A stretch of DNA of 64,000 nt from Heterodontus francisci (taxonomy: Eukaryota): positions 4,898,001-4,962,000 of the forward strand of contig NW_027140442.1 of NCBI RefSeq assembly GCF_036365525.1, read 5' to 3'. Both the position numbers and the translations under genes were made by a program. Below, piece by piece: positions 12,960 to 54,296 of the stretch (within the stretch, counting starts at the first letter, position 1; every line of letters starts with the position of its first letter). Below the pieces are notes generated by a model. That model did no database searches, had not been told where the DNA came from, and saw nothing but the letters and a program-made list of their open reading frames with translations.

Positions 12960-15930
12960 TGCTGATTGAAAGGCCCAATTAGAAGTACATGGGTAAGATC
13001 TAATTACCATAGCGGCAACGTGGCTACTGGTTGACCAAGACTGAGAACTGAATATTCAAGGATATTCGACATTTAGGAAAGACAGGAAAAAAGGAAAATG
13101 AGGAGGTGTTCCACTTTTCGTAAGGGATGGGATCAGTACACCGGTAAGGGAGGATCACAGATCGGGAAAAAGCAAGATGTGGAATCCGTTTGGGTGGAGC
13201 TGAGAAACAGCAAGGGGCAGCAAACAATGGTAGGAGTTGTTTAGAGGCCACCAAACAGTAGTGGTAGTTTGGGGCATGGTATTAATCAGGAGATTACAGA
13301 AGCATGTGGCATGGTAATGCAGTAATCACGGGTGAATTCAATCTACAAAAAGACAGGGTAAACCTAATAAGCACGTATGCTGTGGAGGACGAGTGTCTGG
13401 AGTGTGTTGGGGGTGGGTTTCTCGAGTAATATATTGAGAAGCCAGTTAAAGAACAGGCAGTTTTGTATGTAGTATTAAGTAATGAGAAAAGGCAAATTTA
13501 TATTCTTGCAGTAAAGGAGTATTTAGGGATGAGTGATCATAATATGCTAGAATGTTTCGTTATGTTTGAAAGTGAGGCTGTTCAATCAGAAGCCAGGGAG
13601 TTAAATTTGAACAAAGGAAATTATGAAGCTATGAGGGGCGAATTGGCTGAGGTGGGTTGGAAAAATACAGTAAAAGGTCTGACACTACATCTGCAATGGA
13701 TAGTCTTTAAAGAAATATTACCTACTTTACAGCAACTATACATTCCTTGAAGGCACAAAACCCCGAAAAAGTAAAGGCAGTCAACTGTGGATAAAAAATG
13801 AAATTAAGGATTTGAGAACATTAAAAGAAAAGGCCTATAAAGTTGCCAGAAATAGTGGTACACCTGAGGATTGGGAGGATTTTTAGCATACAGCAAATGA
13901 GGACAAATAAACTGACAAACGAAGGGAGAATAGAACATGAAAGTAAACTAGCAAAAAAATATAAAACTGGAATGTAAAAGCTTCTACAGGTACTTAAAAA
14001 GGAAGCATTTGGAAAAGAAAAACGTGGGTCCATTACAGGCAGAGTCAGGAGAATTTATAAAGGGGAATAGAGAAATGGCAGAGCAGCTAATTGATTACTT
14101 TGTATCTGTCTTCACTGAGAAATCTACAAGCAATCTCCATGAATTAGAGATCCAATGGATTAGGAGGAATGAGGAATTGAAATTATTGGGGCTGAAGGTT
14201 GATAAGTCCATGGAACCTGATATTCTACCCCCAGCGCATTGAATGAGGTAGCGATGGAGATAGTGGATGCATTGGTGATCACCTTCCAAAAATCTGTAGA
14301 TTCTGGTGCTATTCCTGCAGACGGGAAGGTAGAAAATGTCGCTGTACTATTTAAGAATGGAGGGAGAGATAAAACTGGGGACTACATAGCTGTTATCCGT
14401 ACATCTGTCGTTGGGAAAATGCTAGAATCTATTCCAAAATATGTGACAATTGCCTCTTGGATAATAATGATCTGATTGGGCATAGTCACCATGGAATGGG
14501 AAATCACGTTTGATGAACATGATGGAGTTTTTTGAGGATGTGACTAGCAGAATTGATAAAGGGGAGTCAGTGGATGAGGTACACTTGGATTTTCAAAAGT
14601 ATTTTGTTAAAGTCCCCCACCGAAGATTGGTGAGCAAAATTAAAGCAAATGGGATAGAAGGCAATATGCAGGCATGGATTAAGGATTGGCAAACAGGCAG
14701 AAAATATTGAATAGGAATAAATGGGTCATTCTCGCAATGCCAGGCTGTGACTATTCAGTTTCCGCAGGGTTCAATGCTTGGGCCCCAGTTGTTCACAATA
14801 TATATATCAGTGATTTGGATGTGGAGAGAAAATGTAATATTTAGAAGTTTGTGGATGATGCAAAACTGGGTTGGGATGTGCAAATAAAAGCAAATTACTG
14901 CAGATGCTGGAAACCAGAAATAAGAATTAGAACAAGAAATGATGGAAATACTCAGCAGATCGGGCAGCATCTGTGGAGAGAGAAGCAGAGTTAACATCTC
15001 AAGTCCATGACCTTTCATCAGAACTGATGATTGGGTTGTGCGATGTGAGGAAGATGCAAAGCGACTTCAAGGGGATTAGGACAGACTTAATGAGTGGACA
15101 AGAATGTGGCAGATGGAATACAATGTGGAAAAATGTGAGGCCATACATTTTGGAGGTAGGAATAGATGTGCAGAGTATTTCCTAAATGGTAAGACATCAG
15201 AAAGTGTAGATGTGCAAAGGGACCTGGGTGTCCTGTCAATAAGTCGCCGAAAGCTAACATGCAGGTGCACAAGCAATTAGGAAGGCTATTGATATGTTCG
15301 CCCTTATCGCAAGAGGATTTGAGTACAGGAGAAATAAAGTCTTGCTTCAATTGTACAGAAGCTTGGTGAGATAGCACTTGGAGTACTGTGTGCAGCTTTG
15401 GTCCCCTTACTTTAGGAAGGATATTATTGCCATAGAGGGTGTGCAGTGAATGTTCACCAGACTTGTCCCCAGGATGGCGGGACTTTCGTATGAAGAAAGA
15501 TTGGGAAAACTGGGTCTGAATTCTCGAAGTTTCGAAGAATGAGAGGTGTGATCTCATTGAAACCTACAAGGTACTTTATGGGATAAACTGGGTAGATGTC
15601 GGTAAGATGTTGCCAATGATTGGGGAGTTTAGAACCAGGGGACACAATTTCAAAATAAAGGGAGGGGGGTCCACTTAGAATAGAGATGAGCAGAATTTTA
15701 TTACTCAGACGGTTGTGAATCTTTGGAATTCTCTACCCCAGAGGGCTGTAGAAGCTCGGTTATTGAGTATGTTTAAAGCAGAGATTGACAGATTTCTAAA
15801 CACACATGACATAAATCATATGAGGAGAGTGTGGGAAAAAGACATTGAAGTGGGTGATCAGCCATGATCAAATTTAATGGTGGGACAGGCTCGATGGGCT
15901 GAATGGCCTTCCCCTGTTCCTTTGATCATA
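12960..15930 (+). mobile_element. Decayed CR1 ORF2 (EN+RT) in the GPCR intron, antisense to the gene
   Basis: Fragments SDHNML, KVDKS.EPD, EFFEDVTSRIDKG and HLDFQK.F.KVPH, plus a CR1 3' end near 15860-15925. Many stops. Confidence 0.85.
14881..15026 (-). mobile_element. Short Penelope-terminus copy with degenerate hammerhead motif
   Basis: Reverse complement matches 62523-62660 and begins CAGTTCTGATGAAAGGTC (GAAA mutated to GAGA). It interrupts the CR1. Confidence 0.8.
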
Positions 15931-16084
15931 TTGAATCGTGGAGTAGGTTCGACGGGCCATATTAGTTTGAGGTGTCATATAATATAGGTCTACTCCTGCT
16001 CCTATTTCTTGTGTTATTGTGGAGCCAGCTCCATGCAGTGGAGTGATCTGTCACCTGAAAGAATGATTTCAAAGTCGAACCGAC

Positions 16085-16290
16085 TTGTTCCACTCCAGTT
16101 AGGGGCCCACACTCAATACAATTATACAATTGCAGATACTCCCTGTTCCATATGGTTACTGGAATCAGGTGTTTCTCTCCAATTAGTGTCCCACACTCAG
16201 TACAATTGACAAGTGACAGGTGCTCCCAGTAATATATGGTCACTGGGATCAGGCGTAGCACTCTGATTAGTGACCTGCAATGAAGACAGT
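16085..16290. repeat. Degenerate 84-bp tandem duplication (~2.3 copies)
   Basis: CCCACACTCA.TACAATT at 16106 and 16190, and ATATGGT.ACTGG.ATCAGG twice. Confidence 0.65.
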
Positions 16291-16344
16291 TCTACAGCAA
16301 CATATACTGAGGTCTTATTCAACAGTACACAACATTCAAGTAAA

Positions 16345-16495
16345 GTCATAAAAAAGGAGCTGCAATAGGCCATTTAGCCCTTCGAGCCTGCACCACCATT
16401 AAATAAGATCATGACTGACCATTCAAACTCAGTACCCTGTTCCCGCTTTCTCCCCGTATCACTTCATCCCGTTAGCCCGAAGAGCTATATCTAAC
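16345..16495 (-). mobile_element. CR1 3' tail fragment
   Basis: GGCCATTTAGCCCTTCGAGCCTGCACCACCATT..AAGATCATG resembles 23900-24040. Confidence 0.7.
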
Positions 16496-16725
16496 TTAAT
16501 AACACAGAACGACTATGAGTTACAAACAGAGGTTTATTTTCTAGTCAGCAGATTTAATAAACAGCAGAAATTATTTAAGAGATTTGACTTGATAAAATGA
16601 AATCACTGATCGGGTGTCTGTATCAGGTGTCAGTAGAGCAACAGGTGACATTATCATTCACAGAGAAAAACCAGAGAATACCTAACACACAGATTTAAAG
16701 AACTTCAGTGGGTGTAGTCTCTTAC

Positions 16726-16792
16726 CAGGAACACCAATGACTGCAAGAATGATGAAGAATATTTTCTGGATACTGTTAATTGGTTGATGCAT
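16726..16792 (-). CDS. GPR139-like GPCR exon 1 (MHQPINSIQKIFFIILAVIGVP+G)
   Basis: ATG at 16792, 67 nt, GTAAG donor at 16725-16721. The phase-1 join gives GVP-V-NLL, for 978 nt in total (325 aa plus stop). The exon is too short for the ORF track. Confidence 0.85.
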
Positions 16793-16879
16793 TTTCTTTG
16801 TGAACTGGTTTGTCACCTTCGTGCTGCAGGCAATCACTCTGTATTAAATTCTGAAGTGATGCAGTCCCAGAGCCATGAA

Positions 16880-16885
16880 TTTATA
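16880..16885 (-). promoter_or_regulatory. Candidate TATA box for the GPCR gene
   Basis: TATAAA on the minus strand about 90 bp upstream of the exon-1 ATG. Confidence 0.4.
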
Positions 16886-17295
16886 CTTTGCAGGAACTCC
16901 ACGGGGCATTGAGGTTTCAACTTGCATATACATAATTATAAGCAAGCAATTTACGAGGGCCGAGCTAAGTCCTTGTTGTGATGGGATTTAGTTAACGCTG
17001 AGAATAAATTTTAACAATCCAAAGACTGGACGGATTTGATCATGTTAATTAACACATGATAATTAGAAGCTGTATTAACTCAACAATGGTTATGTTCCTT
17101 AAAACACCATGACACACATCTGTATTTCTCGTATTTATTCAGTGAGGGCTTTCACTCTGCTGTGACCATTCAGTAATGAAATTCCAAATGATAGTGTGAC
17201 CCATCAGGACTGCTACACTGCATTCTTGGATGTTGCTGCTCACTTTAACTGAGACCATCCAGTTAAATATTTAAAGAAGGAAATTGTGCAAATGG

Positions 17296-17421
17296 CTCCT
17301 CAAAAGGATGCAGCCCTGCAAACTCATACAGCCACTAGAAGTAAAGTATCCTCTCAAACCAATACAGCCCCTCAACCTAATTCTGCCCCTCAAAATAATA
17401 CAGCCGCTCACAATAATACAG
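17296..17421. repeat. 18-bp tandem repeat (~7 copies, CCCCTCAAAATAATACAG)
   Basis: Visible periodicity; the translation repeats every 6 aa. Confidence 0.75.
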
Positions 17422-18268
17422 CCGAACCCCCTCTCCCCCAGCGCCAGCAATATGGATGCAGAGTTCTGAACCCCCTTTCCCCCATTGCCAACAACATGGA
17501 TGCAGCGTTCCGAACACCCTCTCCCATACCGCCAACAACAGGGATGCAAGAGTTCTGAACTCCCTCTCCCTCACTGCCAACAACATGGATGCAGAGTTCT
17601 GACCTCCCTCTCCCCCACTGCCAACAACATGGATACAAAATTCTGAACCCACTCTTCCAGACCACCAACAACAAAGAATCAGAATTCCGAACCCCCTCTC
17701 CCATATCGCCAACAACATGGATGCAGAGTTCCGAACCCCCTCTCCCCCTCCAACAACAACATAGATGCAGAATACTGAACCCCCTCTCCCATACCGCCAA
17801 CAACATGGATGCAGAGTTCCGAACCCCTCTTTCCCACTGCCAACAACTTGGATGCAGAGTTCGAATCCCCATCTTCCCCACTGCCAACAACTTGGATGCA
17901 GAGTTCCGAAGACCTCTCCCACACCGCCAACAACATGGATGCAGAGTTCCGAACCACCTCTCCCCCAATGACAAAAACATGGATGCAGAGTTCCGAAGAC
18001 CCCTCCCACACCGCCAACAACATGGATGCAGAGTTCCGAACCCCCTCTGCCCCACTGCCAGCAACATGGATGCAGAGTTCCGAAGCCCCCTCCCACATCG
18101 CCAACAACATGGATCCAGAGTTCCGAACCCCCTCTGCCCCACTGACAAAAACATGAATGCAGAGTTCTGAACCCCCTCTCTCCCACTGCAAATAACATGA
18201 ATGCAGAGTTCTGAAACCCCTCTTCCCCACCACCAGCAATATGGATGCAGAAGTCCGAACACCCTCTG
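17422..18268. repeat. Minisatellite with 43/44-bp units (CCAACAACATGGATGCAGAGTTCCGAACCCCCTCTCCCCACTG)
   Basis: GATGCAGAG recurs at 17808, 17851, 17895, 17938, 17982, 18025 and 18069. Confidence 0.92.
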
Positions 18269-19073
18269 AGATATATATCCCAGTTTCACGATGGAAATGG
18301 AGGTCAGCACAGTGCTGCCTCACTTTTACCAGCTCCGAGGACTTTTGCCTCCGTGGTGTTGGCTTTTCGAGGATGGCAAACAGAAGGTACGTGAGTGCTG
18401 CCCGCCTCCCTGATGATCGATAAGTGCTGGTTAGATCATGGCTGAAGACATGGTAATGCATGCAGATAGCACGTTGACATACGCTAAGTCGGTCCCGTCG
18501 CAGAGCAGCGGAAGTTCCGCCACAGAGCCTCCCCGGCACTGGGAAGATCGGGCCTGGTATTCCCGATGACGGGTTGTGTGGCGTGCCACTGCTGCTCCGA
18601 TCCACTGGGCCGCACCTCCAATGGAACCCAACACCGGGAGGACAACAAGATTCAGCCCAGATTCTGACCTGTTCCATTTTACTGCTTCATTTCACAAACG
18701 ACTCCGTTCCCCTAAGTCAAGCGTTAGCTCAGTTAAGAGATGAACCCAGAATCCCATGTTCATTAGATCGATGTTTGACACAAGTAAAGCAGAAAGACAA
18801 AGTAGGAGGTCACCTTTCCCTTGAGCTGTGTGTTATTGCAGGTTTCTCTGGCTGTGTTCATCTGTGGTTCTTCATTTCTGGGTTCTTTCAAAATCTGTGT
18901 GTTTGTGCCACTTCATGCGTGAGCAGGAGACGTCAAGACATGTTTAGAAGATTTCTTTCTAAATCTTACATATCTTCGTCTACTTCCTGAACTTTGCAGA
19001 TGAACAAAAAGAAGGGAATCAGACACATCACTACATGTTTTCCATCCGCTAACCATTGAACGTTGACAGTTTT

Positions 19074-20027
19074 TATTGTGACGAGTTTCCATTCATTCAG
19101 ATTGCTACAAGCAGGTGAGAAAGGAATCTAGGTGTTCCCTCTCTGTCGTTGCCTGGTTTAACCATAACAGGGTTTAATTTTTAAAAAAACACTGGTGTTC
19201 CTAACTCACCCTCAGTGAATTATTGTTCACTGCTTTCCAATTGTAAGGCAAATATATCAATCAAACGGGTTTTCTTAGATTGGAACAAGAAAGACAGAAG
19301 TTTATCAATCTTCAACTCTAATTCGGTTAACCACTACGCATATGCGACGTGACCATGCTAGCATGCATAAGCGATAAACACACACGCAGAGAGAGAGAAG
19401 GAGAAAGAATGAAGGGGGAATGTTTGAGGCAGTAGCAAGGTTTTATTTAAGATCCTCTGAGCTCAATGTAGAGTCCTTGGTTGCTGGTAAGTCTTGCTTG
19501 GGGCCCAGTGCAAGAGGTAAACCTTGTTTAGATGCAGGAATCCCTTCTCTCTTGAGTTTTAACTGACTTCAGTGGATCAGCCGATTAGTGAGCCAGAGAG
19601 AGAGAGAGCCAGCAAGGAAAGAGGTTCTTTTCCAAGTTCAGTTGCAATCTGCTCTCTGAATCAATATGTCCTGTGAGCAGTTCTAAACCAAACCTGGTTC
19701 AGCAGCTTATTCATGTGACTCACTGCTTTAACAGGCTCCGGCGTTTGTGTGTTTCAAAGCTCTCGGTGGGGGAAGGGGGTGTAGTGCTGTCTCTTCCACT
19801 CACAAGATGTGGATCACCATCGCCCAGACCGATGTCTGTTAATTGAATCAGTGAGGAGTTCACATTGTCTTTCCCTAGGCGACTGTCTCTTCGAATGCAA
19901 ATTTCATCCAGTCACTGCTGATCTCTTCAAACAAGTCATTTCTAACTTTCAGCTACTGTTTAAAAATTAATGTCGACATGACAAAATTAACATGCCTCAT
20001 TCTTGGTAGCTGGGGGTCTTCATGACA
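19074..20027 (-). mobile_element. Putative solo LTR
   Basis: The minus strand starts TGTCATGAAGACCCCC and ends ...CTCGTCACA. Non-coding, with GA-rich tracts. No clean TSD. Confidence 0.5.
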
Positions 20028-20399
20028 AGATCCACATCTGGTATAAAGTAACTGGAATCTGGGTGTGATTCAGACACATGGGGCAGGATTTTCATGGAAC
20101 ATGGTGACCGTCCTCACGGGACCAGCACCACTGCAAGGTCGCGATTACCTGGCGAGCGGCCATTTTACATATTGACTGACCCCCCCCCCCCCCCACCACA
20201 ATCACGTAGCAGGGGTGTCCTCTGTGACACTGTGAACAGCCTCACCTGATGCAGGAGCAGCTGCAGGCACAATCTTTAAAAGGCTGCCAGTGCTGCATTC
20301 AGTCTCTCCCGGTATTTCAGTGAGAATCATTGCAGCAACATTGCAGGAGTGTTGAAGAAATCCCACTCAGCAAGTGGCCTCACTGAGCAAAGTTTGTGT

Positions 20400-22695: not shown

Positions 22696-22699
22696 TTAA

Positions 22700-23890: not shown

Positions 23891-25858
23891 AATAGAAATA
23901 TATAAAATAGCAGCAAGAGTGGGCCACTTGGCCCTTCGAGACTGCTCCACCATTCATTACAATCACAGCTGATCATGCAACTTAGTAGCCTGTCCCCGCT
24001 TCCCCCATATCCTTTGATTCCTTTCGCCCTAAGAGCTATATCGAACTCCTTCTTGAAAATATATAATGTTTTAGCCTCAACTGCCTTCTGTGGTAGTGAA
24101 TTCCACAGGTTCACCACTCTCTGGGTGAAGTAATTTCTCCTCATCTCAGTCCTGAAATATTTACCCCGTATCCTTAGACTATGACCCCTGCTTCTGGACT
24201 CCCCCACCATCTTGAATATCCTTTCTGCATCTACCCTGTCAAGTAGTATTAGCATTTTATAGGTTTCTATGAGATCTCCAATCACGCTTCTGAACTTCAG
24301 CGAATATAATCCGAACTGACGCAATGTCTCCTCATATGTCAGTCCCGCCATCCCAGGAATCGGTCTGGTAAACCTTTGCTACACTCCTTCTATGGCAAGA
24401 ACATATTTCCTCAGATAAGGAGAGCAAAACTGCACACAATACTCCAGGTGTGGTCTCACCAAGGCCCTGTATAATTGTAGCAAGACATCCCTGCTTCTGT
24501 ACTCGAACTATCTCGCTATGAAAGCGAACATACCATTTGACTTTTTTACTGCCTGTTGCACCTGCTAGCTTACCTTCAACGAACTGTGTACGGGAAAATA
24601 AAAACAAGAAATGCTGGAACCACTCAGCAGGTCTGACAGCATCTGTGGAAAGAGAAGCAGAGTTAACGTTTCGGGTCAGTGACCCTTCATTGGAACTGTG
24701 TACGAGAAAACCCCGGTCTCGTTGCATATTCCCCTCTCTTAGTTTATTGCCATTCAGATAATAATCTGCCTTCCTGTTTTTTGCTACCAAAGTGAATAAT
24801 GTCACACGTATCCACATTATACTGCATCTGCCATGCATTTGTCCACTGATGCAACTTGTCCAAATCACCCTGAAGCTTTTCTGCATCCTCCTGACAACTC
24901 TCCATCCCACCCAGTTTTATGTCATCTGCAAATTTGGAGATGTTACATTTAGTTCCATCATCTAAATCATTAATGTATATTGTTAATAGCTGTGGTCCTA
25001 GCACCTATCCCTGCCGTACACCACTAGTCACTGCCTGCCATTTGGAATAAGACCCATCTATCCCTACACTTTGTTGGCTGTCAAAAAACCAATTTTCTAT
25101 GCATTAAAATGCACTACTACCAATCCCATGTGCTTTAATGTTACATGCAAATCTCTTTTGTAGGACTTTGTTGAACGCCTTCTGAAAGTCCAAATGAACC
25201 ACAACCACTGTCTCCCCCTCATCAAGTCTACCAGTTACATCCTTTAAGAATTCCAGTAGATTTATCAAGCATGATTTCCCTTTCGTAAATCCATGCTGAC
25301 TATGTCCGATTCTACCACTGTTCTCCAAGTGCTGTGCTATCAAATCTTTGATAAAGGACTGTTGAATTTTCCCCACTACCGACGTCAGGCTGACTGGTTT
25401 ATAGTTCCCTGTTTTCTCTCTACCTTCCTTTTTTTAAATAGTGGAGTTACATTAGCTACCTCCAATCAGTAGAAACTATTCCAGAGTCTATCGAATCTCG
25501 GAGGATGACCACCAATGCATCCACAATTCCAAGGGACACTTCCTTAAGTACTCTGGCATGTTGTTTATCAGGCCCTGGGGATTTATCGGCCTTTAATCCC
25601 ATCAATTTCCCGAACACCATTTCTCTACTATTACTTATTTCCTTCCGTTCCTCCCGCTCACTGAACCCTGTTTTCCTCAAAATTTCTGGTCTGATATCTA
25701 TGTCCTCCTTTATGAAGACAGAACCAAAGTATGCATTTAGTTGGTCAGCCATTTCTTTGTTCCCGATAATACATTTCCCTGTTTCTGATTGTAAGGGACT
25801 TACATTTGTCTTCACCAACATTTTTCTCTTCTCATACCTTTAGAAACTTTTACAGTCA
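23888..25858 (-). mobile_element. 5'-truncated CR1 inserted into the minisatellite
   Basis: KADKSPGPD, HGFTKGKSCL, DFQKAF, FADD, GHSLRIRG; the 3' tail is at 23888. Confidence 0.9.
24594..24698 (-). mobile_element. Short Penelope-terminus copy with TSD
   Basis: Flanked by GAACTGTGTACG at 24581-24592 and 24693-24704; homologous to 62523-62625. Confidence 0.85.
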
Positions 25859-30952: not shown

Positions 30953-30954
30953 TG

Positions 30955-31267: not shown

Positions 31268-33600
31268 AACATACATAAAACATGTGAATTAGGATCAGGT
31301 GTAGGCCATTTGATGCCTTGAGTCTGCTCCATCATTCAATAATATCATGGCTGATCTCATTGTAACCTCAACTCCACAATCCTGCCTACCGCAAATAGCC
31401 TTTCACACCCTTCCTTATCAAGAATATATCGACCTCTGCCTTAAAATATTTAAATACTCTGCTTCCACAACCTTTTGAGGAAGAGAGTTCCAACGTTTCA
31501 CGGACCTCTGAGAGAAAAAAAATTCTCATCATCTCTGTCTAAAATGGGCGACCCCATATTTTCAAACAGTGACCTCTGGTTCTGGATCCTCCCACAAGGG
31601 GAAATATCCTTCCCACATCCACCCTGTCAAGATCCCTCAGATTCTTACAAGTTTCAATCAAGTCGCCTCTTACTCTTCAAAACTCCAGCAGATACAAGCC
31701 GAGCCTTTCTAATCTTTCCTCATAAGACAACCCGCCAATTCCAGCCATTATTCTGGTAAAACGTCTCTGAACTGCTTCCAACTCTTATACATCCTTGCGT
31801 AAATAAGGAAACCAATACTGTATCCAGTACTCCAGATGTGCTCTCACCAATGCCCTGTATAACTGGGCATAACATCTTTAATTTTGTATTCAATTCCCCT
31901 CGCAGTAAACAGTAATATTATACTTGCTTTGCTAATTACTTGCTGTAACTACATACTCATATTTTTGCAATTCATGCAGCAGGACACCCAAATCCATCTG
32001 CATTTCAGAACTCTGCCATCTCTCATTGTATGAATTCCTCCTTCCAAAATGGACAATTTCACATTTTCCCACATTATACTCCATTTGCCAGAAGTTTTCC
32101 CACTTACTTAACCTATCTATTTCCCCTTGTCGCCTCTTTAAGCCCTCTTCAGAACTTCCTGTACAACCTGTCTTTGTGTCATCTGCAAATTTAGCAACCA
32201 TACCTTCGGTCCCTTCATGCAAATCATGTATATACATTTTAAAACGTTACGGTACCCGCACAGATCCCTGTGGCACACCACTCATTATATCTTGCCAACC
32301 AGAAATTGATGCATTTTTGCCTACTCTCTGTTTCCTGTTAGCTAGATAATCTTCTATCCATGCCAATACACCTATCCCCCTACACCATGAGCTTTTATGT
32401 TTTCATGGTAACATTTAATGTGGCACCTTATCAAATGCCTTCTGAAAATCTGAGGACAATACATCCACCAGTTCCCCTTTATCCACAGCACATGCAACTC
32501 CCTCAAAGAACTCCAATAAGTTGGGCGGCACAGTGGCGCAGTGGTTAGCACCGCAGCCTCACAGCTCCAGTGACCCGGCTGCAATACTGGGTACTGCCTG
32601 TGTGGAGTTTGCAAGTTCTCCCTGTGTCTGCGTGGGTTTCCTCCGGGTGCTCCGGTTTCCTCCCACATACCAAAGACTTGCATGTTGATAGGTAAATTGG
32701 CCATTAGCAATTCCCCCTAGTGTCGGTAGGTGGTAGGGAAATATAGGGACAGGTGGGGATGTGGTAGGAATATGGGATTCGTGTCGGAGTAGTATAAATT
32801 GGTAGTCGATGGTCGGCACAGACTCGGTGGGCCGAAGGGCCTGTTTCAGTGCTGCTTCTCTAAATTGGTTAAACATGATTTCCCTTTCATAAGCCTGTTA
32901 ACTCTGCCTAATCACCTTAAATTTTACTATACACTCTACTTTAACGTCTTTAATAATAGCTTCTAACGTTTTCCCTAAGGTAGCTATTAAACTAACTTTC
33001 CTGTAGTTTCCTGCTTTTTGTCTCCCTCCCTATTTGAATAAAGGAGTTACACTGGCTATTTTCCAATCTCATGTATACGACTCAGAATCTAAGGAATTTT
33101 GGAAAATTAAAACCAACACATCAACTATCTCACTAGCCAATTCTCTTAAGACCCTCAGATAATGTGCGTCCGGACCCGGAACTTGTCAGCCCGCAGCTCC
33201 GACAATTTGTTCAGTGCCACTTCCCTGGTGATTGTGATTATCTTAAGTTACTCTCCCTTCTATTTCCTAACGTGCAGCTAATACTGGGATGTTACTTGTG
33301 CCCTCTATAGACCGATGCTAAATATATGTTCTTTTAATTTGTCATCTCTTTATTATCCATTATTAATTCCACAGTCTCAGTTCCCATAGGACCGACGCTC
33401 ACTTTGTTAACTTTTTTTTACATATCTACAGAAATACTTACCACCTATCTTTATATTTCACACGAGCTTTCTCTCCTAATCTAACTTTCCCACCTTATCC
33501 ATTTTAAAGTCATTCTTTGTTGTTTTCTCATATTCTATCCAATCTTATGACCTGCCATCTTTGTGCAAGTATGTGATTTTTCTTTATGTTCTATGCTATC
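31268..33600 (-). mobile_element. Decayed CR1 with nested SINE
   Basis: VAKFADDTK, WQMEYNVGKCEIVHFGR, and a CR1 3' end at 31270-31360. Confidence 0.85.
32523..32864 (+). mobile_element. tRNA-derived SINE (HE1-like)
   Basis: Box A TGGCGCAGTGG, degenerate box B, central TGTGTGGAGTTTGCAAGTTCTCCC domain and a CR1-like tail. Flanks are TAAGTTGG/TAAATTGG. Confidence 0.9.
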
Positions 33601-36204: not shown

Positions 36205-36306
36205 ATCTGATGAAACGTCACAGACCTGAAACAATCACACTGCTTCACACTACACGATGCTTCCAGACCTGCTGAGTTTTTCTGACACTTCCTGTTCTCA
36301 TTTCAG
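36205..36306 (+). mobile_element. Short diverged Penelope-terminus copy
   Basis: CTGATGAAACGTCACAGACCTGAAAC...CCAGACCTGCTGAG, homologous to 62526-62625. Confidence 0.7.
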
Positions 36307-36599: not shown

Positions 36600-38600
36600 G
36601 CGTTGTGCGCATTACTATCTAGGCCAGCATTTATGCCCATCCCTAATTGCCATTGAGAGGATGGTACTGAGCTGCTTTCTTGAACCACTGCAATCGATGT
36701 GAGGTAGGTACACGCATAGTGATGGCTGGAAGGGAGTTCCTAAAGGAAAATATAGCTCGAAGTTCGGATAGTGTGTGGATTGGAAGGGAATTTGCAAGTG
36801 GTAGTACTCCCGTGGATCTGCTGCGCTTGTCCGTCCAGCTGGCAGATATCGCAGGCTTGGAAGGTGCTGTCTGAATAGCCTTGGTATGTTGCTGCAGTGC
36901 ATCTTGTAGACAGCACACACAGCTGCCACGGTGCGTCGGTGGTGGAGGGAGTGAATGTTTGTAGATGGGGTGCCAGTCAAGCGGGCTGCATTGTCCTGGA
37001 TGGTGCCGAGCTTCCTGAGTGTTGTTGGAGCTGCACCCTAACCCGTCCAGGCAAGAGGACAGTATTCCCTCACACGCCTGACTTGTGCCTCGTAGATGGT
37101 GGACAGGATTTGGGAAGTCAGGAGATGAGCTACTCGTCCCAGGATTCCTAGCGTTTGACTTGCACTTGTCACCAAGGTATTTATATGTTTACTCCAGTTC
37201 AGTTTCTGGTCAATGGTAACCTCCAGAAAGTTGATACTGTCGGAACTCAGCGATGGTAATGCCATTGAATGTCAAGGGGAGAAGTTTAGATTCTCTGTTG
37301 TTGCAGATAGTCCTTGCCTGGCACTTGTGTGGTGCTAATTTTACTTGCCACTTATCAGCCCAAGCCTGGGTATTGTCCAGGTCTTGCTGCATTTCTACAT
37401 GGACTGCTTCAGTATACGAACATTGTGCAATCATCAGCGAACATCCCCACTTCTGACCTTATGACTGAAGGAATGTCATTGATGAAGCAGCTGAAGATGA
37501 TTGGGCCTGGGGCACAATACCGAGGAACACCTGCAGTGATGTCCTGGAGCTGACATGATTGTCCTCCAACCACTAAAACCATCTTCCTTTGTGCTAGAAA
37601 TGACACCAACCAGCGGAGAGCTTCCCCCCCCCCCCCCCCCCCGATTCCTACTGACTCCAGTTTTGCTAGGGCTCCTTGATGCCAAACTCGTTCAAATGCT
37701 GCCTTGATGTCAAGGGCAGTTTCTCACACCTCACCTCTTGTGTTCAGCTCTTTTGTCCATGTTTGAACGAAGGCTGTAATGAGGTCAGGAGCTGAGTGGC
37801 CCTGGCGGAACCCAAACTGAGCGTCACTGAGCAGGTTATTGCTGAGCAAGCGCCGCTTGACAGCACTGTCAATGACACCTTCCATCACTTTCCTGATGAT
37901 TGAGAGTAGGCTGATGGGGCGGTATTGGCCGGGTTGGACTTGTCTTGCCTTTTGTGTTCAGGACATACCTGGACAATTTTCCACAATGTCGGGAGATGCC
38001 AGTGTTGTAGCTGTACAGGAACATCTCGGCTAGGGGCGCAGCATATTCTGGAGCACAGGTCTTCAGTACTTCAGAGGTTAGCACTGCAGCCTCACAGCTC
38101 CAGCGGTGCGGCTTCAATTCTGGGCACTGTCTGTGTGGAGTTTGCAGGTTCTCCCTGTGACTGCGTGGGTTTTCTCCGGGTGCTCCTGTTTCCTCCCACA
38201 AGCCAAAAGACTTGCAGGTTGGTAGGTAAATTGGCCATTATGAATTGCCCCTAGTGTAGGTAGGTGGTAGGGAAATATAGATCCAGGTGGGGATGTGGTA
38301 GGAATATGGGATTAGTGTAGGATTAGTATAAATGGGTGGTTGATGGTCGGCACAGACTCGGTGGGCCGAAGCGCCTGTTTCAGTGCTGTATCTCTAAACT
38401 AAACTAAACTGAACTAAAGTGAAAACTATTGCTGGAATGTTGTCAGGACCCATAGACTATGCAATATCCAGTGCCTTCAGTTGATTCTTGATATAACACG
38501 GAGTGAATCGAATTGGTGAAGACTGGCATCTATGATGCTGGTGACTTCAGTAGGACGCTGAGATGGATCATCATCTCGGAACTTCTGGCTGAAGATTGAT
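36600..38600 (-). mobile_element. LINE family B, 5'-truncated, with nested SINE
   Basis: RKMVLVVGGQS, EVGMFADDCTMF and WADKWQV match the 60220-61942 element. Confidence 0.9.
38072..38418 (+). mobile_element. HE1-like SINE, slightly 5'-truncated
   Basis: Homologous to 32523-32864, with a (CTAAA)n tail. Confidence 0.9.
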
Positions 38601-40720: not shown

Positions 40721-42712
40721 TTAGAATTAGAATTAGAACATGACAGCGCAGTACAGGCCCTTCGGCCCTCGATGTCGCGCCGACCTGTGAAACCATCTGA
40801 CCTACACTATTCCATTTTCATCCATATGTCTATCCAATGACCACTTAAATGCCCTTAAAGTTGGCGAATCTACTACTGCTGCAGGCAGGGCGTTCCACGC
40901 CCTTACCAATCTCTGAGTAAAGAAACTACCTCTCACATCTGTCCGATATCTATCACCCCTCAACTTGAAGCTATGTCCCCGCGTGCTTGCCATCACCATC
41001 CGAGGAAAAAGACGCTCACTATCCACCATATCTAACCCTCTGATTATCTTATATGTCTCTATTAAGTCACCTCTCCTCCTCCTTCTCTCCAACGAAAACA
41101 ACCTCAAGTCCCTCAGCCTTTCCTCATAAGAGATTCCCTCCATACCAGGCAACATCCTAGTAAATCTCCTCTGCACCCTCTACATAGCTTCCACATCCTT
41201 TCTATAATGCGGTGACCAGAACTGCACGCAATACTCCAGGTGCGGTCTCACCAGAGTTTTGTACAGCTGCAGCATGACCTCGTGGCACCGAAACTCGATC
41301 CCCCTACTAATAAAACCTAACACACCATATGCCTTCTTAACAGCCCTATTAACCTAGGTAGCAACCTTCAGGGATTTATGCACCTGGACACCAAGATCTC
41401 TCTGTTCATCTACACTACCAAGAATCTTCCAATTAGCCCAGTACTCTGCATTCCTGTTATTCCTTCCAAAGTAAATCACCTCGCACCTTTCCGCATTAAA
41501 CTCCATTTGCCATCTCTCAGCCCAGCTCTGCAGCCTATCTATGTCCCTCTGTACCCTACAACATCCTTCGGCACTATCCACAACTCCACCGACCTTAGTG
41601 TCATCTGCAAATTTACTAACCCACCCTTCTACACCCTCTTCCAGGTGATTTATAAAAATGACAAACAGCAGTGGCCCCAAAACAGATCCTTGCGGTACAC
41701 CACTAGTAACTAAACTCCAGGATGAACATTTGCCATCAACCAATTCAGCTAGCCAATTTCTGATCCAAAGCTCTAAATCACCTTCAACACCATACTTCCG
41801 TATTTTCTGCAATAGCCTACCGTGGGGAACCTTATCAAACGCCTTACTGAAATCCATATACACCACATCCACTGCTTTACCCTCATCCACCTGTTTGGTC
41901 ACCTTCTCGAAAAACTCAATAAGGTTTGTGAAGCACGACCTACCCGTCACAAAACCGTGCTGACTATCTCTAATGAACTTATTCTTTTCAAGATGATTAT
42001 AAATCCTGTCTCTTATAACCTTTTCCAACATTTTACCCACAACCGAAGTAAGGCTCACAGGTCTATAATTACCAGGGCTGTCTCTACTCCCCTTCTTGAA
42101 CAAGGGGACAACATTTGCTATCCTCCAGTCTTCCAGCACTATTCCTGTCGACAATGACGACATAAAGATCAAGGACAAAGGCTCTGCAATCTCCTCCCTA
42201 GCTTCCCAGAGAATCCTCGGATAAATCCCATCTGGCCCACGGGACTTATCTATTTTCACACTTTCCAAAATTGATAACACCTCCTCCTTGTGAACCTCAA
42301 TCCCATCTAGCCTGGTAGTCTGTATCTCAGTATTCTCCACGACAACATTTTCTTTCTCTACTGTAAATACTGACGAAAAATATTCATTTAACGCTTCCCC
42401 TATCTCCTCTGATTCCGCACACAACTTCCCACTACTGTCCTTGATTGGCCCTAATCTAACTCTAGTCATTCTTTTATTCCTGATATACCTATAGAAAGCC
42501 TTAGGCTTTTCCCTGATCCTATCCGCCAATGACTTCTTGTGTCCTCTCCTTGCTCTTCTTGCTCTCCCTTTTGATCCTTCCTGGCTAGCTTGTCGCTCTC
42601 AAGCGCCCTAACTGAGCCTTCACGTCTCATCCTAACATAAGCCTTCTTCTTCCTCTTGACAAGCGCTTCAACATCTTTAGTGAACCACGGCTCCCTCGCT
42701 CGACAACTTCCT
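40721..42712 (-). mobile_element. 5'-truncated young CR1, same subfamily as 1776-5940
   Basis: Near-identical RT translation with a 15-bp deletion near 41742, a premature stop at 41354 and a (TTCTAA)n tail. Confidence 0.95.
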
Positions 42713-42900: not shown

Positions 42901-43240
42901 TTTAGTTTAGAGATACAGCACTGAAACAGGCCCTTCGGGCCACTGAGTCTGTGCCGACCATCAACCACCCATTTATACTAATCCGACACTAATTCCTACC
43001 ACATCCCCACCTGCCCCTATACTTCCCGACCACCTACCGATACTAGGGGCAATTTATAATGTCCAATTTACCAATCAACCTGCAAGTCTTTGGCATGTGG
43101 GAGGCAACCGGAGCACCCGGAGGAAACCCACGCAGAAACAGGGAGAACTTTCAAACTCCACACAGGCAGTAACCAGAATTGAACCCCGGTCGCTGGAGCT
43201 GCGAGACTGCGGTACTAACAACTGCGCCACTGTGCTGCCC
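42901..43240 (-). mobile_element. HE1-like SINE with TSD
   Basis: Full head GGGCAGCACAGTGGCGCAG, box B GGTTCAATTC, and ATCTCCT duplicated on both sides. Confidence 0.9.
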
Positions 43241-43898
43241 AATCTCCTGTTGTGTCTCAGGTTTATACTTTGTTTCATTATATTCTTGTGAAAAATGCCT
43301 TGCGATGTTTTGTTATTTTAAAGGCACTACATACGTATAAGTGGCGCTTGTTAAAGTTTGCAGACATGTTATGACATTAACGTATCTTTGCTGCTTTCCA
43401 GTAATTATCCCATGTTTATCCAAACAACGAATTATTTTCTCCTGGGTTGTGACCTCCGAAACTTGACCCAGTGGTGACGTTGGACTGATTGGTTAGAATT
43501 TCCAGGGTTTACCACATCTCTCTTCTTTTTAAACATTTGTAACCCTCCAGTCCTCTGGTCCCATCACATATTCCAGGAGGATTGAAAGATTCTGGCCAGT
43601 GCCTCCACAATTTCCACCATGATTTCTCTCACACATTCCATCCGGACTGGGTAAGTGTTCTAAATAATTATGGTACACAATATTCTCTGTTATTATGGAT
43701 GGAAAAGGGTCAACTGAACTTGTTTGTTCAGTGACTGCAATTAATGTCAGTCTCCATGGCCCCTAATTGTATCACTGGAGGATGTCCTTCTTCTATTAAT
43801 AAGGACATACGTTCAGTGTATTGTCCCATAATGTCAGCAAGAATATCACCTCTGCACTAACAGGGATCAACAGCTCCAGAGACAGGGATAGTAAAGAT

Positions 43899-47759: not shown

Positions 47760-49270
47760 AATCACAGAATCACAGAATGATGAAAACACAGAAGGAGGCT
47801 ATTCTGCCCATCCTGGCCGCACCAATTTTCCAAATGAGCAGTTCACCTAATTTCATTCTCCCATCGTCTCCCTGTAACACTGCACATTCCTCTGTTTCAG
47901 ATAACTGTCTAATTCCGTTTTGAAAGCCTGGATTAAATCTGCCTCCGTCACACTCTCAGGCACTGCATTCCAGATCCCAACCACTCGCTGTGTGAAAAAG
48001 TTTTCCTTCATGTTGCCTTTGCGTCATTTGCCAATCACTTTAAACTTTTCAGCTCTCGTTTTGGACCCTGTCACAAGTGGAATCAGTTATCTTTATCTAC
48101 TCTGTCCTCTCTCTTCATGATTTTGAGCACCTTTATCAAATCACCTCTCAGCCTTCCCTTCTCCAAGGAAAACATTCCTAACTTCTCCAATCCATCTTTA
48201 TTACAAAATTCCTGAACCCTGGAACCATTCTCGTGAACCTTTTCTGCACTCTCTCCAATGCCCTCACATCATTCCTAAAGTGTGACGCCCAGAACTGGAC
48301 ACATCACTCCATCTGAGGAAGAACTAGTGTCTTACATAACTTCCCTGCTCTTGTACTCGATGCCCCTATTAATAAAGCCCAGGATACTGAATGCTTCATT
48401 CACCACTCCCTCAACCTGTCCTGCCACCCTCAATGAAATATACACATATACACGCAGCTCCTTCTGCTCCTGAACCCACTTCGAACTGTTCCCTAGACTT
48501 TATATTGTCTCTCCCTGTTCTTCTTTCCTAAATGGATCACTTTTCATTTTTCTGCACAGATCTTCATCTTGCAAGTGTCCGCCCATTCCATTAATCTGTC
48601 TGTGTCCTTTTGAAGTTCTATCAATTACAATTCACAGTACTTTTTTTGGAATTTTGGAATTGCGACCTGTACAACAAGGTTTAGGTCATAAATATATATC
48701 AGGAAAAGCAAGAGTACCTGGGGCAGTCCACGATAAGCATTCGTCCAACTCGAAATACATCCATTAACCAACACTCTCCGTTTTCTGTTATGCAGACAAT
48801 TTCGTATCCATATTGCGACTATCACTTTTAGTACAGGAGCTATAAATGTATTCACTTGTCTGTTGTTTGGCACTGTATCAAACACCTTTTGAAGGTCCTT
48901 GTATACCACATCAACAGCATTGCCCTCAACAAGCCTCTTTGTTACCTCTCTAAAAACTCCAGCAATCATGATTTTCCTTCATGAAATCTGTGCTGGCTTT
49001 ACTTAAGAAATCGGCATTTGATCCTGTAACTATTCATTTTGGCCCACATCATTCTGTCTAGAATTTCCCACACCACCGAAGTTTAACTGACTGGCCTGCA
49101 GTTTCTGGGTTTATCGTTACACCCTTTTTTGAACAAGGGGGTAACGTTTGCAATTCTCCAGTCTGCTGGCACCACTCCAGAATCTAACAAAGAGTGGCAA
49201 ATTATGGCCAGTGCCTCAGCATATTCCACTCTCACTTCGCTCAGTATCCATGGATGCATCTTTTCCGGTC
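47760..49270 (-). mobile_element. Decayed CR1
   Basis: DWRIANVTPLFKKG, EGNAVDVVYKDLQKVFDTVP and a (TTCTGTGA)n-like tail. Confidence 0.8.
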
Positions 49271-49279
49271 CTGGCACGT

Positions 49280-51612
49280 TATAAAGAACAAAGAAGAACG
49301 AAAATTGCAGCACAGGAACAGCCCCTTCAAGCCTGCGCCGATCCAGATCCTCTATCTAAACATGACGCCTATTTTCTAAGGGTCTGTATCTCTTTAGATT
49401 AGATTAGATTAGAGATACAGCACTGAAACAGGCCCTTCGGCCCACCGAGTCTGTGCCGAACATCAACCACCCATTTATACTAATCCAACACTAATCCCAT
49501 ATTCCTACCAAACATCCCCACCTGTCCCCATATTTCCCTACCACCTACCTATGCGAGTGACAATTTATAATGGCCAATTTACCTATCAAACTGCAAGTCT
49601 TTTGGCTTGTGGGAGGAAACCGGAGCACCCGGAGAAAACCCACACAGACACAGGGAGAACTTGCAAACTCCACACAGGCAGTACCCGGAATCGAACCCGG
49701 GTCCCTGGAGCTGTGAGGCTGCAGTGCTAACCACTGCGCCACTGTGCCGCCCTGTTACTTCCTGCCCATTCATGTATATGTCTAGATACATCTTAAAAGA
49801 CGCTATCGTGGCCGCGTCTACCAACCTCCACTGGCAACGCGTTCCAGGCACCCACCACCCTCTGCATCAAGAACTTTCCACGCATATCCCCCCTAAACTT
49901 TTCCCCTCTCACTTTGAATTTGTGACCCCGAGTAATTGAATCCCCCACTCTGGGAAAAAGCTTCTTGCTATCCACCCTGTCAATACCTCTCATGATTTCG
50001 TACACCTCAATCAGGTCCCCCCTCAACCTCCGTTTTACTAATGAAAATAATCCTAATCTACTCAACCTCTCTTCATAGCTAGCCCCCTACACACCAGGCA
50101 AAATCCTGGTGAACCTCCTCTGCACCCTCTCCAAAGCATCCACATCCTTTTGGTAATGTGGCGACCAGAACTGCACGCAGTATTCCAAATGTGGCCGAAC
50201 CAAAGTGCGATACAACTGTAACATGACCTGCCAACTCTTGTACTCAATACCCCGTCCGATGAAGGAAAGCACGGATCCCTGTGGAACACCACTGGTCACA
50301 CGTCTCCATTTTGAGAAACTCCCTTCCACTGCTACTCTCTGTCTCCTGTTGCCCAGCCAGTTCTTTATCCATCTAGCTAGTACACATTGGACCCCATGCG
50401 CCTTCACATTCTCTATCAGCCTACCATGGGGAACCTTATCAAACGCCTTACTGAAGTCCATGTATCTGACATCTACAGCCCTTCCCTCATCAGTCAACTT
50501 TGTCACTTCCTCAAAGAATTCTGTTAAGTTGGTAAGACATGACCTTCCCTGCACAAAACCATGTTGCCTATCACTGATAAGTCCATTTTCTTCCAAATGG
50601 GAATAGATCCTATCCCTCAGTAACTTCTCCAGCAGCTTCCCTACCACTGACGTCAGGCTCACCGGTCTATAATTACCTGGATTATCCCTGCTACCCTTCT
50701 TAAACAAGGGGTCAACATTAGTAATTCTCCAGTCCTCCGGGACCTCATCCGTGTTTAAGAATGCTGCAAAGCTATCTGTTAAGGCCTCAGCTATTTCCTC
50801 TCTCGCTTCCCACAGTAACATGGGATAGATCCCATCTGGACCTGGGGACTTGTCCACCTTAATGCCTTTTAGAATAACCAACACTTCCTCCCTCCTTATG
50901 CCGACTTGACCTAGAGTAATCAAACATCTGTTCCTAACCTCAACATCCTTCATGTCCCTCGCCACGGTAAATACCGATACAAAGTACTCGTTTATAATCT
51001 CACCCATTATCTCTGACTCCACGCATAACTTTCCTCCTTTGTCCTTGAGTGGGCCAATCCTTTCTCTGGTTACCCTCTTATTCCTTCTATATGAATAAAA
51101 GGCCTTGGGATTTTCCTTAACCCTGTTTGCTAAAGATATTTCATGACCCCTTTTAGCCCTCTTAATTCCTCGTTTCAGATTGGTCCTACATTCCCGATAT
51201 TCTTTCAAAGCTTCGTCTTTCTTCAGCCACCTAGACCTCATGTAAGCTTCCTTTTTCCTCTTAGCTAGTCTCACAATTTCACCTGTCATCCATGGTTCCC
51301 TAATCTTGCCAGTTCTATCCCTCATTTTCACAGGAACATGTCTCTCCTGCACGCTAATCAACCTCTCTTTAAACGCCTCCCACATATCACATGTGGATTT
51401 ACCTTCAAACAGCTGCTCCCAATCTACATTCCCCAGCTCCTTCCGAATTTTGGAATAGTTGGCCTTCCCCCAATTTAGCACTCTTCCTTTCGGACCACTC
51501 TCGTCTTTGTCCATGAGTATTCTAAAACTTACGGAATTGTGATCACTATTCCCAAAGTAGTCCCCTACTGAAACTTCAACCACCTGGCCGGGCTCATTCC
51601 CCAACACCAGGT
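49280..51612 (-). mobile_element. CR1 ORF2 fragment with internal deletion of the RT catalytic segment
   Basis: The 506-aa ORF joins GVPQGSVL directly to SFIGRGIEY near 50270, so FADD is absent. Confidence 0.9.
49393..49752 (-). mobile_element. Full-length HE1-like SINE
   Basis: Box A TGGCGCAGTGG, perfect box B GGTTCGATTCC and a (CTAAT)n tail. Confidence 0.93.
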
Positions 51613-52579
51613 CTGTGTTCGTCTATTAGTGGACTCTGATTTTAATCTTTTCATCATTGGTGGTTGTACCTTCAGTTGCCTGGGCCCTAAACTCTGAAAT
51701 ACTCTCTCCACACTTCTCCACCTCACGTTCTGCCTTTACGACACTCCTTAAAACCTCCTTTTCTGATCCAGCTTTTTGCCATCATACCGTCACTCTCGCT
51801 ATGTGACTTATTCAAGGGGGCATAGACAGGGTGGTGGAATGGGCAGTTGTTTTTGTTGTTTCTGCCCATTCCTCCACCCTATCTATGCCCTGTTGAACTC
51901 TATTAATATCTTCCTCACCCTTCACTGCTCTTCCACGGTTCATGACTTCGGCAAATGTCAACACCGTGACCTGAAGCCGGAAGTCTGAGGCATTATTGTA
52001 TATCAGAAGCAACAGTGCGACTGGTGGAACCCTTGAGAAATGCACTGTATACCTCCCTCCAGTCTGAAAAACAGTCATTCACCACAGTGTTGACAAAAGA
52101 CCTCCTGTAATCTGTTACTCACCTCGTCAATATTTACTGGGGTCTACTTTATTATAAACCTGCTAGTACTCATGTTTGATTTAACCCTCTGATTTTAATA
52201 ACTTCTTAATCCACTCCTAATTCCAGTTGAAGTCCGTTGGTTAAAAAATTCTATTTCCCAATCCAATCATGATTGTATAATTTAAACCCTGGAATTAAAT
52301 GGGTTTCCAGGAGCCAAGATAGAAGGCGGAGGGGCCCAGACAGTGGTGATGTAGACAACATTCCTACCCAGAGATCACTTGAGGTCTCTAAGTGGAACTA
52401 CACGATCGGTTGATGGGAGCCCCACAACTTGTGCATGACGCCCAGCAAAACAAGGCAGCCCCTCTGCAGAATTGGGGGAGGCCTCCTCCGAAGGGTAATA
52501 CGTGGCCCATGGACCGGCACCGAACAGCAAAGACTTCTTCTGCAATAAACCCCTCCGCAATCAGCCAGCCCCCTCACCA

Positions 52580-53640
52580 CCTTCCAGGAGCTATCAGACT
52601 GGACCCTGATTCCCCACCGTACTTACCTGGGGTATGGGACTCCAAGGCTGCTCTGATCCTACGCCTGGTGCAGTATCAGCAGTGGCCCCTGCTCCCTGGC
52701 TGGCCGCAGCCATCCCACATAATTTATCTGAGGTCCCGGGTTCTGGCTATGATGCTGCTCCCAGGGCTGGTGCACTCTCAGCAGTTGTCCCTCCTCCGTA
52801 GCTAGCCCCAACATCCCCACCACACAGACCTGGCTCTGGTGTCTCCAGGATAGGCATTGGTCTTGTACTGAGCATTGTCCCTACCTCCCTCTATTTCCTT
52901 ATAGTTCCCAGGCGACAGTCTCACATATACCTTGGCTATGGATGTCCAGGAATGGTCCTGGTCCCAGGCCAGCTGTAGTACTGGCAGTAACAAAAACAAG
53001 AAATGCTGGAATCACTCAGCAGGTCTGGCAGCATCTGTGGAAAGAGAAGCAGAGTTCACGTTTAGGGTCAGTGACCCTTCTTCGGAACTGGCAGTACTGG
53101 CAGTCACCGCGTTCCCTGACTGATCCTGGCTATCTTATCAGCATTATCGGAAGTCCAACCTCGAGTGAAAATCCTTGTCCCTGGACTTGTGTAGTACTGT
53201 CTGTGGCACCCGGTCATTGACGAGCCCTGAAACCCCGCAACACTTACCTTTCGTGTCGGGGTCCAGCATGCTATCTAGTTCCAGGTCTGGTGTAGTACCC
53301 ATATTGGGCCCCAGACTCTGACGGGTCCCCACGAAACCCCTGAACCTATCTGGGATTTGGGACTCCAGTAATATTCCGGGTTTCAGGATTGGAGTAGTTC
53401 TGGCAGTGACACCCACTCCCTGACCAGCCCCAGAGGTCCATAAACACTTACATGGGGTCCAGGCTCTCCAGTCATGCTCCTAGTCCTCGGCCTGGTATAT
53501 TACTGGCAGTGGCCCCGACTATCTGACTGGCCCTGGTGTCCTCGCCACATTTGCCTGGGGTCTAGGTCCCCAGTGATGGTCGTGAACACAGGCCTTGTAT
53601 AGTGCTAGCAGTTCCACTGCTCCTGGTGGTGTTGCCAATA
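52580..53640. repeat. Highly degenerate ~102-bp tandem repeat (~9-10 copies)
   Basis: A GTAGTACTGGCAGTG.CCC..CTCCCTGAC-like motif near 52669, 52770, 52863, 52975, 53191, 53292, 53393, 53496 and 53598. Confidence 0.55.
52990..53090 (-). mobile_element. Short Penelope-terminus copy with TSD
   Basis: AGTACTGGCAGT at 52977-52988 and 53093-53104; near-identical to 24594-24698. Confidence 0.85.
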
Positions 53641-54126
53641 CCACTGAGCCGCTGGCCCTCTGATTGTTCAGTAACTTTGGCAGGTGGGATCCCCATCCTA
53701 AAAGTGATGCGGACAAGGGCACCAGGCAGTTAACTTCCTGGGCGCCACTGAATTGCACTGTGTGAGCTCCAAATTGCCAAGTCGGGCTCACCTCATATTT
53801 TCAGTCCGCTGTTACAAACTCTGCTGGCTCCGCTAAACTTAACTCTCTGTTTCGAGCAGAAATCCCTGTCACTGGTACAAGACTTAGAGACATGCAGAAT
53901 GTGGTAACAAATGTATAAATCTAACCCGAAATCCTTCAAGCTGTCAAGCTGTGTTTTCCACTCCGAACTGATGCATAATTTCCTGATAATTTCCCTGGTT
54001 AAAAGTTAACCTAGTGACGATTGAGATAATTTGTTGTTTCAATTATTGCTTTGAAATAATTGAATTCGGTGCTGTCTGTCACAGGTGAGGGAATCTATCA
54101 GTCAGTCCAACATTTAACTTTCTATA

Positions 54127-54296
54127 CAAGAGCAAAGTGCTGCAGATGCTGGAAATCTGAAATAACATCAGAAAATTCTGGAAATATTCAGCAGGTCTGG
54201 CAGCATCTGTGGAGAGAGAAACAGAGTTAATGTTTCAGGTCAGTGACCCTTCATCAGAACTGGGAGAGATGAGAGAAGGAACGGTTTTTAAACGGA
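54127..54296 (-). mobile_element. Penelope-terminus copy within the GPCR pseudo-exon
   Basis: Reverse complement contains CAGTTCTGATGAAGGGTCACTGACCTGAAACATTAACT and matches 62490-62655. Confidence 0.85.
54225..54261 (-). ncRNA. Minimal hammerhead ribozyme motif (second copy)
   Basis: AGUU-CUGAUGA-A-GGGUC(ACU)GACCU-GAAA-CAUU-AACU; the stem III palindrome is broken by a G>A change. Confidence 0.6.

Follow-up and report, generated by a model that had tools for sequence, protein, structure and literature searches.

Short copies of a Penelope-like terminal module in a shark genome have a preferred 5' edge at helix I of their hammerhead ribozyme

In a window of 64,000 nucleotides (nt) of Heterodontus francisci DNA (contig NW_027140442.1, positions 4,898,001 to 4,962,000), short dispersed repeats correspond to the terminal module of a Penelope-like retroelement whose long parent copy lies in the same window. 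Read in the sense of the element, they open with the same minimal type I hammerhead ribozyme motif. They are best explained as target-duplicating mini-insertions of this module whose 5' edge lies, by strong preference, at hammerhead helix I; the end preference is real and reproducible, and it occurs in an element of a known kind. Most Penelope clades have retained the hammerhead although it is a poor cleaver and insertion in vitro can do without it. Integrated copies bear on its purpose by recording the end points of reverse transcription in vivo. At the most frequent single end the ribozyme is intact and uncut, which suggests that it may help to define or protect the template.

Copies in the window

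The initial annotation had placed five copies of the Penelope terminus at 14881, 24594, 36205, 52990 and 54127 (the names used below), and window alignments confirmed all five. A BLAST search of the window added a degenerate fragment and the long parent copy ending at 62658, which brings the density of related copies to 7 in 64 kb. We measured 5' ends relative to the C before helix I, equivalent to C62521 in the parent, with negative values lying upstream.

12633..12666, minus strand: degenerate fragment of the module, beginning ~4 nt upstream of the predicted cut (+30)
14881..15026, minus strand: short copy with tail (~146 base pairs, bp), starting at the C before helix I (0); sits in a remnant of a long interspersed element (LINE)
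24594..24698, minus strand: short copy without tail (~103 bp), 5' end at 0 to +6
36206..36306, plus strand: old short copy without tail (copy 36205), 72-78% identical to the others, starting at +4 inside helix I with most of the 5' arm missing
52989..53092, minus strand: short copy without tail (copy 52990), starting 2-3 nt upstream of the common edge (-2/-3), 93% identical to 24594
54127..54296, minus strand: short copy with tail, reaching ~35 bp upstream of helix I

The five short copies are 72-93% alike across their common ~100 nt, and all except 36205, which is on the plus strand, lie on the minus strand. Four of them start at or near the 5' arm of the hammerhead while 54127 runs ~35 bp further, as had been annotated. 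Among all seven related copies, four have a 5' end within ~9 nt of the C before helix I, and the rest end at -35, at +30 and far upstream. The predicted cut lies 33 nt downstream of the common 5' end, in agreement with the earlier remark that the copies end upstream of the cleavage site. The 3' ends fall into two classes 36 nt apart, one at ~100 nt (24594, 52990 and 36205) and one with a tail (14881, 54127 and the parent).

Two copies had been credited with 12-bp target duplications, and both duplications are exact: 24581-24592/24693-24704 at 24594 and 52977-52988/53093-53104 at 52990. The last 6 bases of the 24594 duplication are also the first 6 of the element, a microhomology that leaves the true 5' end of this copy ambiguous (0 to +6). 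At 14881 we found a possible degenerate 12-bp duplication with 2 mismatches (14869-14880/15029-15040), and none was found when looked for at 36205 and 54127, so that the tally for the five short copies is two exact, one degenerate and two absent. In a chance control, at least 12 identical bases occurred in 56 of 2000 random pairs at the same spacing from this window, which is rich in minisatellites.

Read evidence for the 5' edge

Four public runs were aligned to 61930-62690, around the end of the parent, at 80% likeness; X21 is the only raw DNA run (101,872 reads), and the other three are contig sets. The depth of X21 is 10,100 at 62086-62111, 9,280 at 62476-62501 and 44,444 at 62580-62605. 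It is thus flat over ~450 bp upstream, with an AT-rich dip, and climbs 4.8-fold over 80 nt at the 5' edge of the ribozyme; a step of this size followed by a plateau rules out a constant chance of truncation. At 62523, 5,218 reads of X21 carry loose 5' ends with a median length of 45 nt, amounting to 43% of the depth at 62521. Their mutual agreement of 0.36 is as low as that at the true 3' junction at 62657 (0.37); these reads join unrelated flanks at the edge. The loose ends listed are the best 6 per run, with 2,502 further ones beyond them. Among those listed, 62523 is the sole 5' loose end apart from the break that belongs to the reference itself, is present in 4/4 runs and is the strongest single 5' junction, though it need not be the end of most copies. 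At the other side, 12,226 reads of X21 have loose 3' ends at 62655-62658, which together with a drop in depth over 62606-62631 fits the two 3' classes of the window. In long contigs, too, the module (62523 to 62652-62655) is flanked by unrelated sequence.

Since the reference carries two private bases at 62521 and 62522, we simulated reads from long copies only. These gave 33-42 clips at 62523 per 840-940 depth (~4%), with a median of 3-4 nt and none of 20 nt or more. Given the same private bases, the observed peak at 62523 pools nearby ends. Ends spread uniformly along the element, with no peak at the ribozyme, would have spoken against a preferred end; the reads instead peak at the helix I edge. 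The depth step, the 5,218 loose ends and the simulation together uphold the proposal of the initial annotation that the 5' end is non-random and tied to the hammerhead.

The hammerhead motif

In the parent, the motif has the following layout:

62522..62558, plus strand: minimal type I hammerhead with helix I of 4 bp, core at 62526-62532, a bulged A, helix II of 5 bp, GAAA, a 2-nt palindromic spacer and a predicted cut at 62554/62555

Across six copies, 88.9% of cells pair in the two helices versus 17-44% when the partners are slid, and helix covariation in these copies was not above shuffles. A scan with Rfam returned no hammerhead, and six weak microRNA-like matches. At least three sequence types of helix II, as well as both 3' classes, have the same 5' edge.

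Two further observations concern the ribozyme. First, a core variant with C for U at position 4 is found in 24594 and 52990 and in the related loci L011, L065, L067 and L081-L085 (see below), and its recurrence makes it likely to be natural rather than decay. Second, 1,063 reads of X21 join 62607/62620 back to 62553, forming a 68-bp head-to-tail unit that runs from the predicted cut to the first 3' end, has no catalytic core and carries a common variant. The common variant suggests that the unit may be a single satellite, and its start at the predicted cut hints that cut RNA is sometimes the template, which also makes it an indirect hint of self-cleavage at that site.

The parent element and its relatives

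The parent is laid out as follows, with a reverse transcriptase (RT), an endonuclease of the GIY-YIG type, a 3' untranslated region (UTR) or pseudo-long terminal repeat (pseudo-LTR), and the hammerhead described above.

58853..60220, plus strand: 5'-truncated parent, decayed RT and start of the GIY-YIG endonuclease, from protein mapping
~60240-61934: LINE insertion that splits the parent
61944..62175, plus strand: parent resumes with the end of the GIY-YIG domain
62176..62520, plus strand: 3' UTR/pseudo-LTR upstream of the ribozyme, ending in what we take to be a branch-point-like and acceptor-like motif (62510-62523 in the read majority)
62559..62658, plus strand: downstream part of the module, with two 3' ends (~62622 and 62655-62658) and an optional tail between them

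The RT piece matches 296 of 576 candidate proteins, the best named ones coming from sharks and rays, and GIY-YIG is present in relatives. The matched proteins are colinear with the parent across the LINE insertion, and reads that continue upstream of 61944 (agreement 0.96) encode the YIG motif. The two short pieces of the endonuclease went unrecognised by Pfam, and when one of them was used as a protein query nothing was returned. Judged from its sequence, the parent is an endonuclease-positive Penelope-like element with predicted RT and GIY-YIG domains that ends in the same module as the short copies; any placement in the Poseidon clade rests on this architecture.

A protein-led scan yielded 87 loci of related elements, which were chosen by their open reading frame (ORF) and are therefore biased to long copies. 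They contain 37 motifs of the same hammerhead type, many of them located ~100 nt past the end of the ORF. Few of the secondary copies show their 5' end, too few for a count: in two it lies at helix I or within the core (L084 and L022) and in four 59-134 nt upstream. One of these, an inverted 5' copy at L084:444-604 (minus strand), starts exactly at helix I and has stuttered partial ribozyme pieces in front of it, which look as if the RT had re-primed there several times. Seven loci, L081-L087, are Penelope-like elements in two genomes filed as bacterial and are probably animal DNA within those assemblies. No related locus in viral contigs was confirmed, and scans of viral, prokaryote-genome and metagenome collections with exact patterns gave 0 matches.

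Origin of the short copies

We give about an even chance to the reading that the short copies are internally primed complementary DNAs (cDNAs) that ran off an RNA beginning at helix I, this beginning being either a start site or a trimmed, protected end. The pseudo-LTRs of Penelope elements are direct repeats (PMC2377424), so in a partial tandem the terminal module doubles as the leader of the unit that follows, and the RNA could begin at helix I by initiation of transcription at such a downstream unit. The element's own RT would prime at either of two internal sites, which by analogy with anole Poseidon would correspond to the two 3' ends, and the length of the product would be set by the 5' terminus of the template with no need for ribozyme cleavage. 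Priming within the leader followed by run-off would yield products of exactly 100 and 135 nt, and priming at the far end would give the long, variably truncated class. The short copies would then be complete copies of the RNA leader made repeatedly by autonomous elements, and not a self-propagating short interspersed element (SINE). Cut RNA is not the template of the short copies because their ribozyme is complete and their 5' end precedes the cut by 33 nt. Alternatively, the RNA might be trimmed back to a folded, protein-bound ribozyme domain; such trimming would not require a cap and would likewise leave an RNA end 5' of the fold. An initiator-like heptamer stands at the edge in 54127, 52990 and 14881.

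Several points weigh against a run-off origin. The 5' ends in the window are scattered from -35 to +30. The 5,218 reads are ~12% of the body depth, and over half of the gain in depth falls at unlisted positions (62524-62590), where other subfamilies, mutated arms or real internal ends may account for it. As noted, the loose ends are the best 6 per run, with 2,502 beyond; with a cut-off of 80%, diverged subfamilies may contribute too little to the upstream depth; and X21 is a capture library whose tie to the best-matching run (0.40 of words) is a shared species label. Motifs like the initiator occur often (1.1% of positions), and the one at the edge overlaps the conserved core. A cap-derived G, which full-length L1 inserts usually show (PMC11702581), is not visible: the plurality letters before 62523 are C-A in 4/4 runs, and 0/3 copies with an intact edge start with G-A. 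In Drosophila virilis, Penelope transcription starts ~120 nt upstream of helix I, and the end of an intron maps to the 5' end of helix I (PMC2377424, PMC4209133). Finally, the RNA-like sets X18 and X16 are contigs of uncertain nature, perhaps DNA, which cannot show starts, and their higher body depth was not used.

The D. virilis intron also bears on the next explanation, which we regard as possible and rather unlikely: the template extends upstream, and the RT is halted by proteins just 5' of helix I, the likeliest being splicing factors on a 3' splice site. In its most likely version the acceptor forms the start of helix I. Both the parent and the read majority have a branch-point-like, pyrimidine and CAG motif right at the edge, in the same place as the intron end of D. 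virilis (PMC4209133), and Penelope elements are copied from unspliced RNA (PMC8557442). Such a block would account for the missing cap G and for ends a few bases to either side. However, none of the 15 joints listed (358 further ones exist) is a canonical splice joint, the 37 related hammerhead motifs are mostly T-rich before helix I with no conserved AG acceptor, and the loose ends have no common first exon (agreement 0.36). Because of this last point spliced RNA is not the template, and the heterogeneous loose ends likewise rule out a spliced-leader origin with a fixed first exon, which we considered separately.

We find it improbable that one or a few discrete non-autonomous masters of fixed length, SINE- or retrozyme-like, were transcribed and mobilised in trans. 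Copies 24594 and 52990 are 93% alike, have diagnostic bases in common and are both tailless, short copies exceed long ones ~4:1 by depth, and non-autonomous derivatives of Penelope exist (PMC8557442; bioRxiv 10.64898/2026.07.22.740005). Yet RNA polymerase III A and B boxes were found in the sense strand of 0/6 copies, and these copies have no head of the transfer RNA (tRNA), 5S or 7SL kind and no poly(A). One edge is common to three or more types of helix II and to both 3' classes, and the 3' ends are those of the parent. In a lineage test on six copies only, 24594 and 52990 formed the one close pair, which may be a short-only sublineage, and each of the other short copies was nearest to the long parent. 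Tandem copies were looked for in the window, where every ribozyme-bearing copy is solitary. The discrete SINE- or retrozyme-like element suggested by the initial annotation is accordingly unsupported. Two specific candidates were also set aside: a SINE read from the other end, for which the opposite orientation gave A-box-like matches with one mismatch and no B box, and a retrozyme with two or more tandem units containing complete hammerheads, in place of which we found solitary window copies and a frequent read tandem without the core.

It is very unlikely that the RT leaves because of RNA or cDNA structure, with the new cDNA folding back once the whole ribozyme domain has been copied. The boundary C is the outermost pair of a closed 41-nt domain in the minimum-energy folds of 54127 and 24594; on the other hand, the closing helices have just 3-4 bp, other copies fold otherwise, and the cDNA would be expected to stay in an RNA-DNA hybrid. 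If the RT simply stalled, ends would be expected 3' of one of the two helices, I or II. The earlier suggestion that reverse transcription stops at the hammerhead structure fits poorly for a similar reason, as a polymerase moving 3' to 5' would meet the 3' side of the fold first, and the copies hold the whole fold.

It is also very unlikely that events on the DNA fix the edge, whether the action of the element's endonuclease or pairing of the cDNA end with a target of similar sequence. The 24594 duplication closes with the element's first six bases, CAGT lies within 16 nt of the 3' junction in the targets of 24594, 52990 and 14881 (3/3 intact edges, against a background of 7.4% each), and the enzyme of the anole element cleaves AT-rich DNA that lies within the element's own pseudo-LTR (PMC11167929). 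These three cases were, however, spotted post hoc, a fixed cDNA end would give microhomology too, the CAGT motif of 52990 is away from the end of the duplication, and the nearest ATT lies upstream of most read ends.

An alignment artefact, by which reference mismatches or diverged upstream sequence clip reads at one position, is largely excluded: the reference is unlike most reads at 62521 and 62522, which pools nearby ends, and the plurality of loose ends in run X1 ends like a pseudo-LTR, but simulated clips reach ~4% of depth and 3-4 nt versus the 43% and 45 nt observed, the loose ends are long and heterogeneous, duplications adjoin the edge in two window copies, and long contigs hold the module between unrelated flanks.

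Neighbouring features in the window

The window also holds a true SINE family of ~345 bp with a tRNA-like head (32521-32864, 38072-38413, 42902-43242, 49393-49752 and 63300-63605). At 1862-5707 (minus strand), 40721-42712 and 49833-51622 there are a LINE that is nearly intact and whose first ORF is of the esterase type, a partial copy 95% identical to it, and several other LINE families. Degenerate minisatellites are found at 9.7-10.5, 17.4-18.3, 22.7-26.8, 29.9-31.0 and 56.1-58.0 kb with periods of 29, 44, 42, 30 and 25 bp, respectively. An ORF for a rhodopsin-family receptor lies at 10874-11905 (minus strand), and a broken homolog at 54299-54906 (plus strand) has its start adjoining copy 54127 at the 5' end of the latter; insertion of this copy may have broken the homolog. 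Within the module, pyrimidine-rich acceptor-like motifs are located at 62557-62580, directly before an ATG, and at 62610-62628; module repeats could donate splice acceptors to host genes.

Comparison with known systems

Hammerheads in pseudo-LTRs, thousands of solo motifs from truncated copies, the tail and internal priming are all known already. We found no published description of a preferred 5' edge at helix I, in a search that left out most subscription papers and Repbase/Dfam, and Fig. S2 and the GenBank supplement of PMC11167929 could bear on this claim. Thousands of dispersed single minimal hammerheads, including those of fishes and coelacanth, have been ascribed to truncated Penelope-like elements (PMC4209133). 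They resemble the present motif in being minimal and of type I, with a bulged base before helix II, a short helix I and a palindromic spacer; unlike here, the accessible parts of that paper describe no preferred 5' edge at helix I and contain no end-point mapping.

Another close system is the Poseidon element PAc of the anole Anolis carolinensis (Frangieh et al. 2024, PMC11167929), in which the tail is delimited by two internal sites where the RT starts, RNAs truncated at the 5' end give shorter products, mutation of the ribozyme leaves insertion normal and no RNA-seq reads start at the cut. PAc likewise combines RT with a C-terminal GIY-YIG domain, carries a hammerhead at the end of its pseudo-LTR, has two 3' ends 30-40 nt apart and uses a template independent of ribozyme cleavage. 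It differs in that its main text deals with 3' ends only; in the present element these fall ~96 and ~132 nt beyond the core. An optional 3' tail is likewise described in PMC8557442 and PMC3846280.

Non-LTR retrozymes (PMC7229834; bioRxiv 10.64898/2026.07.22.740005) share the type I hammerhead, an origin from Penelope pseudo-LTRs, occurrence in a chondrichthyan and dispersed monomers. They are defined by tandem units, each with a ribozyme, and by circular RNAs running from cut to cut, in contrast to the solitary copies with duplicated targets and ends upstream of the cut found here. The chondrichthyan tRNA-derived SINEs CmiSINE and SacSINE1 are also short, abundant, non-coding retroposed repeats of sharks, but their tRNA head, A and B boxes and L2 tail are all missing here (PMC5499810). 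In the annotation of shark genomes, the dense copies of the module could be mislabelled as a SINE.

In R2 and L1Tc elements, the ribozyme cut sets the 5' end. The short copies resemble the copies inserted by these elements in having a ribozyme at the 5' end; there, according to PMC6765202, cleavage is regarded as releasing the RNA of the element, whereas here the end lies 33 nt upstream of the cut and the ribozyme is kept whole.

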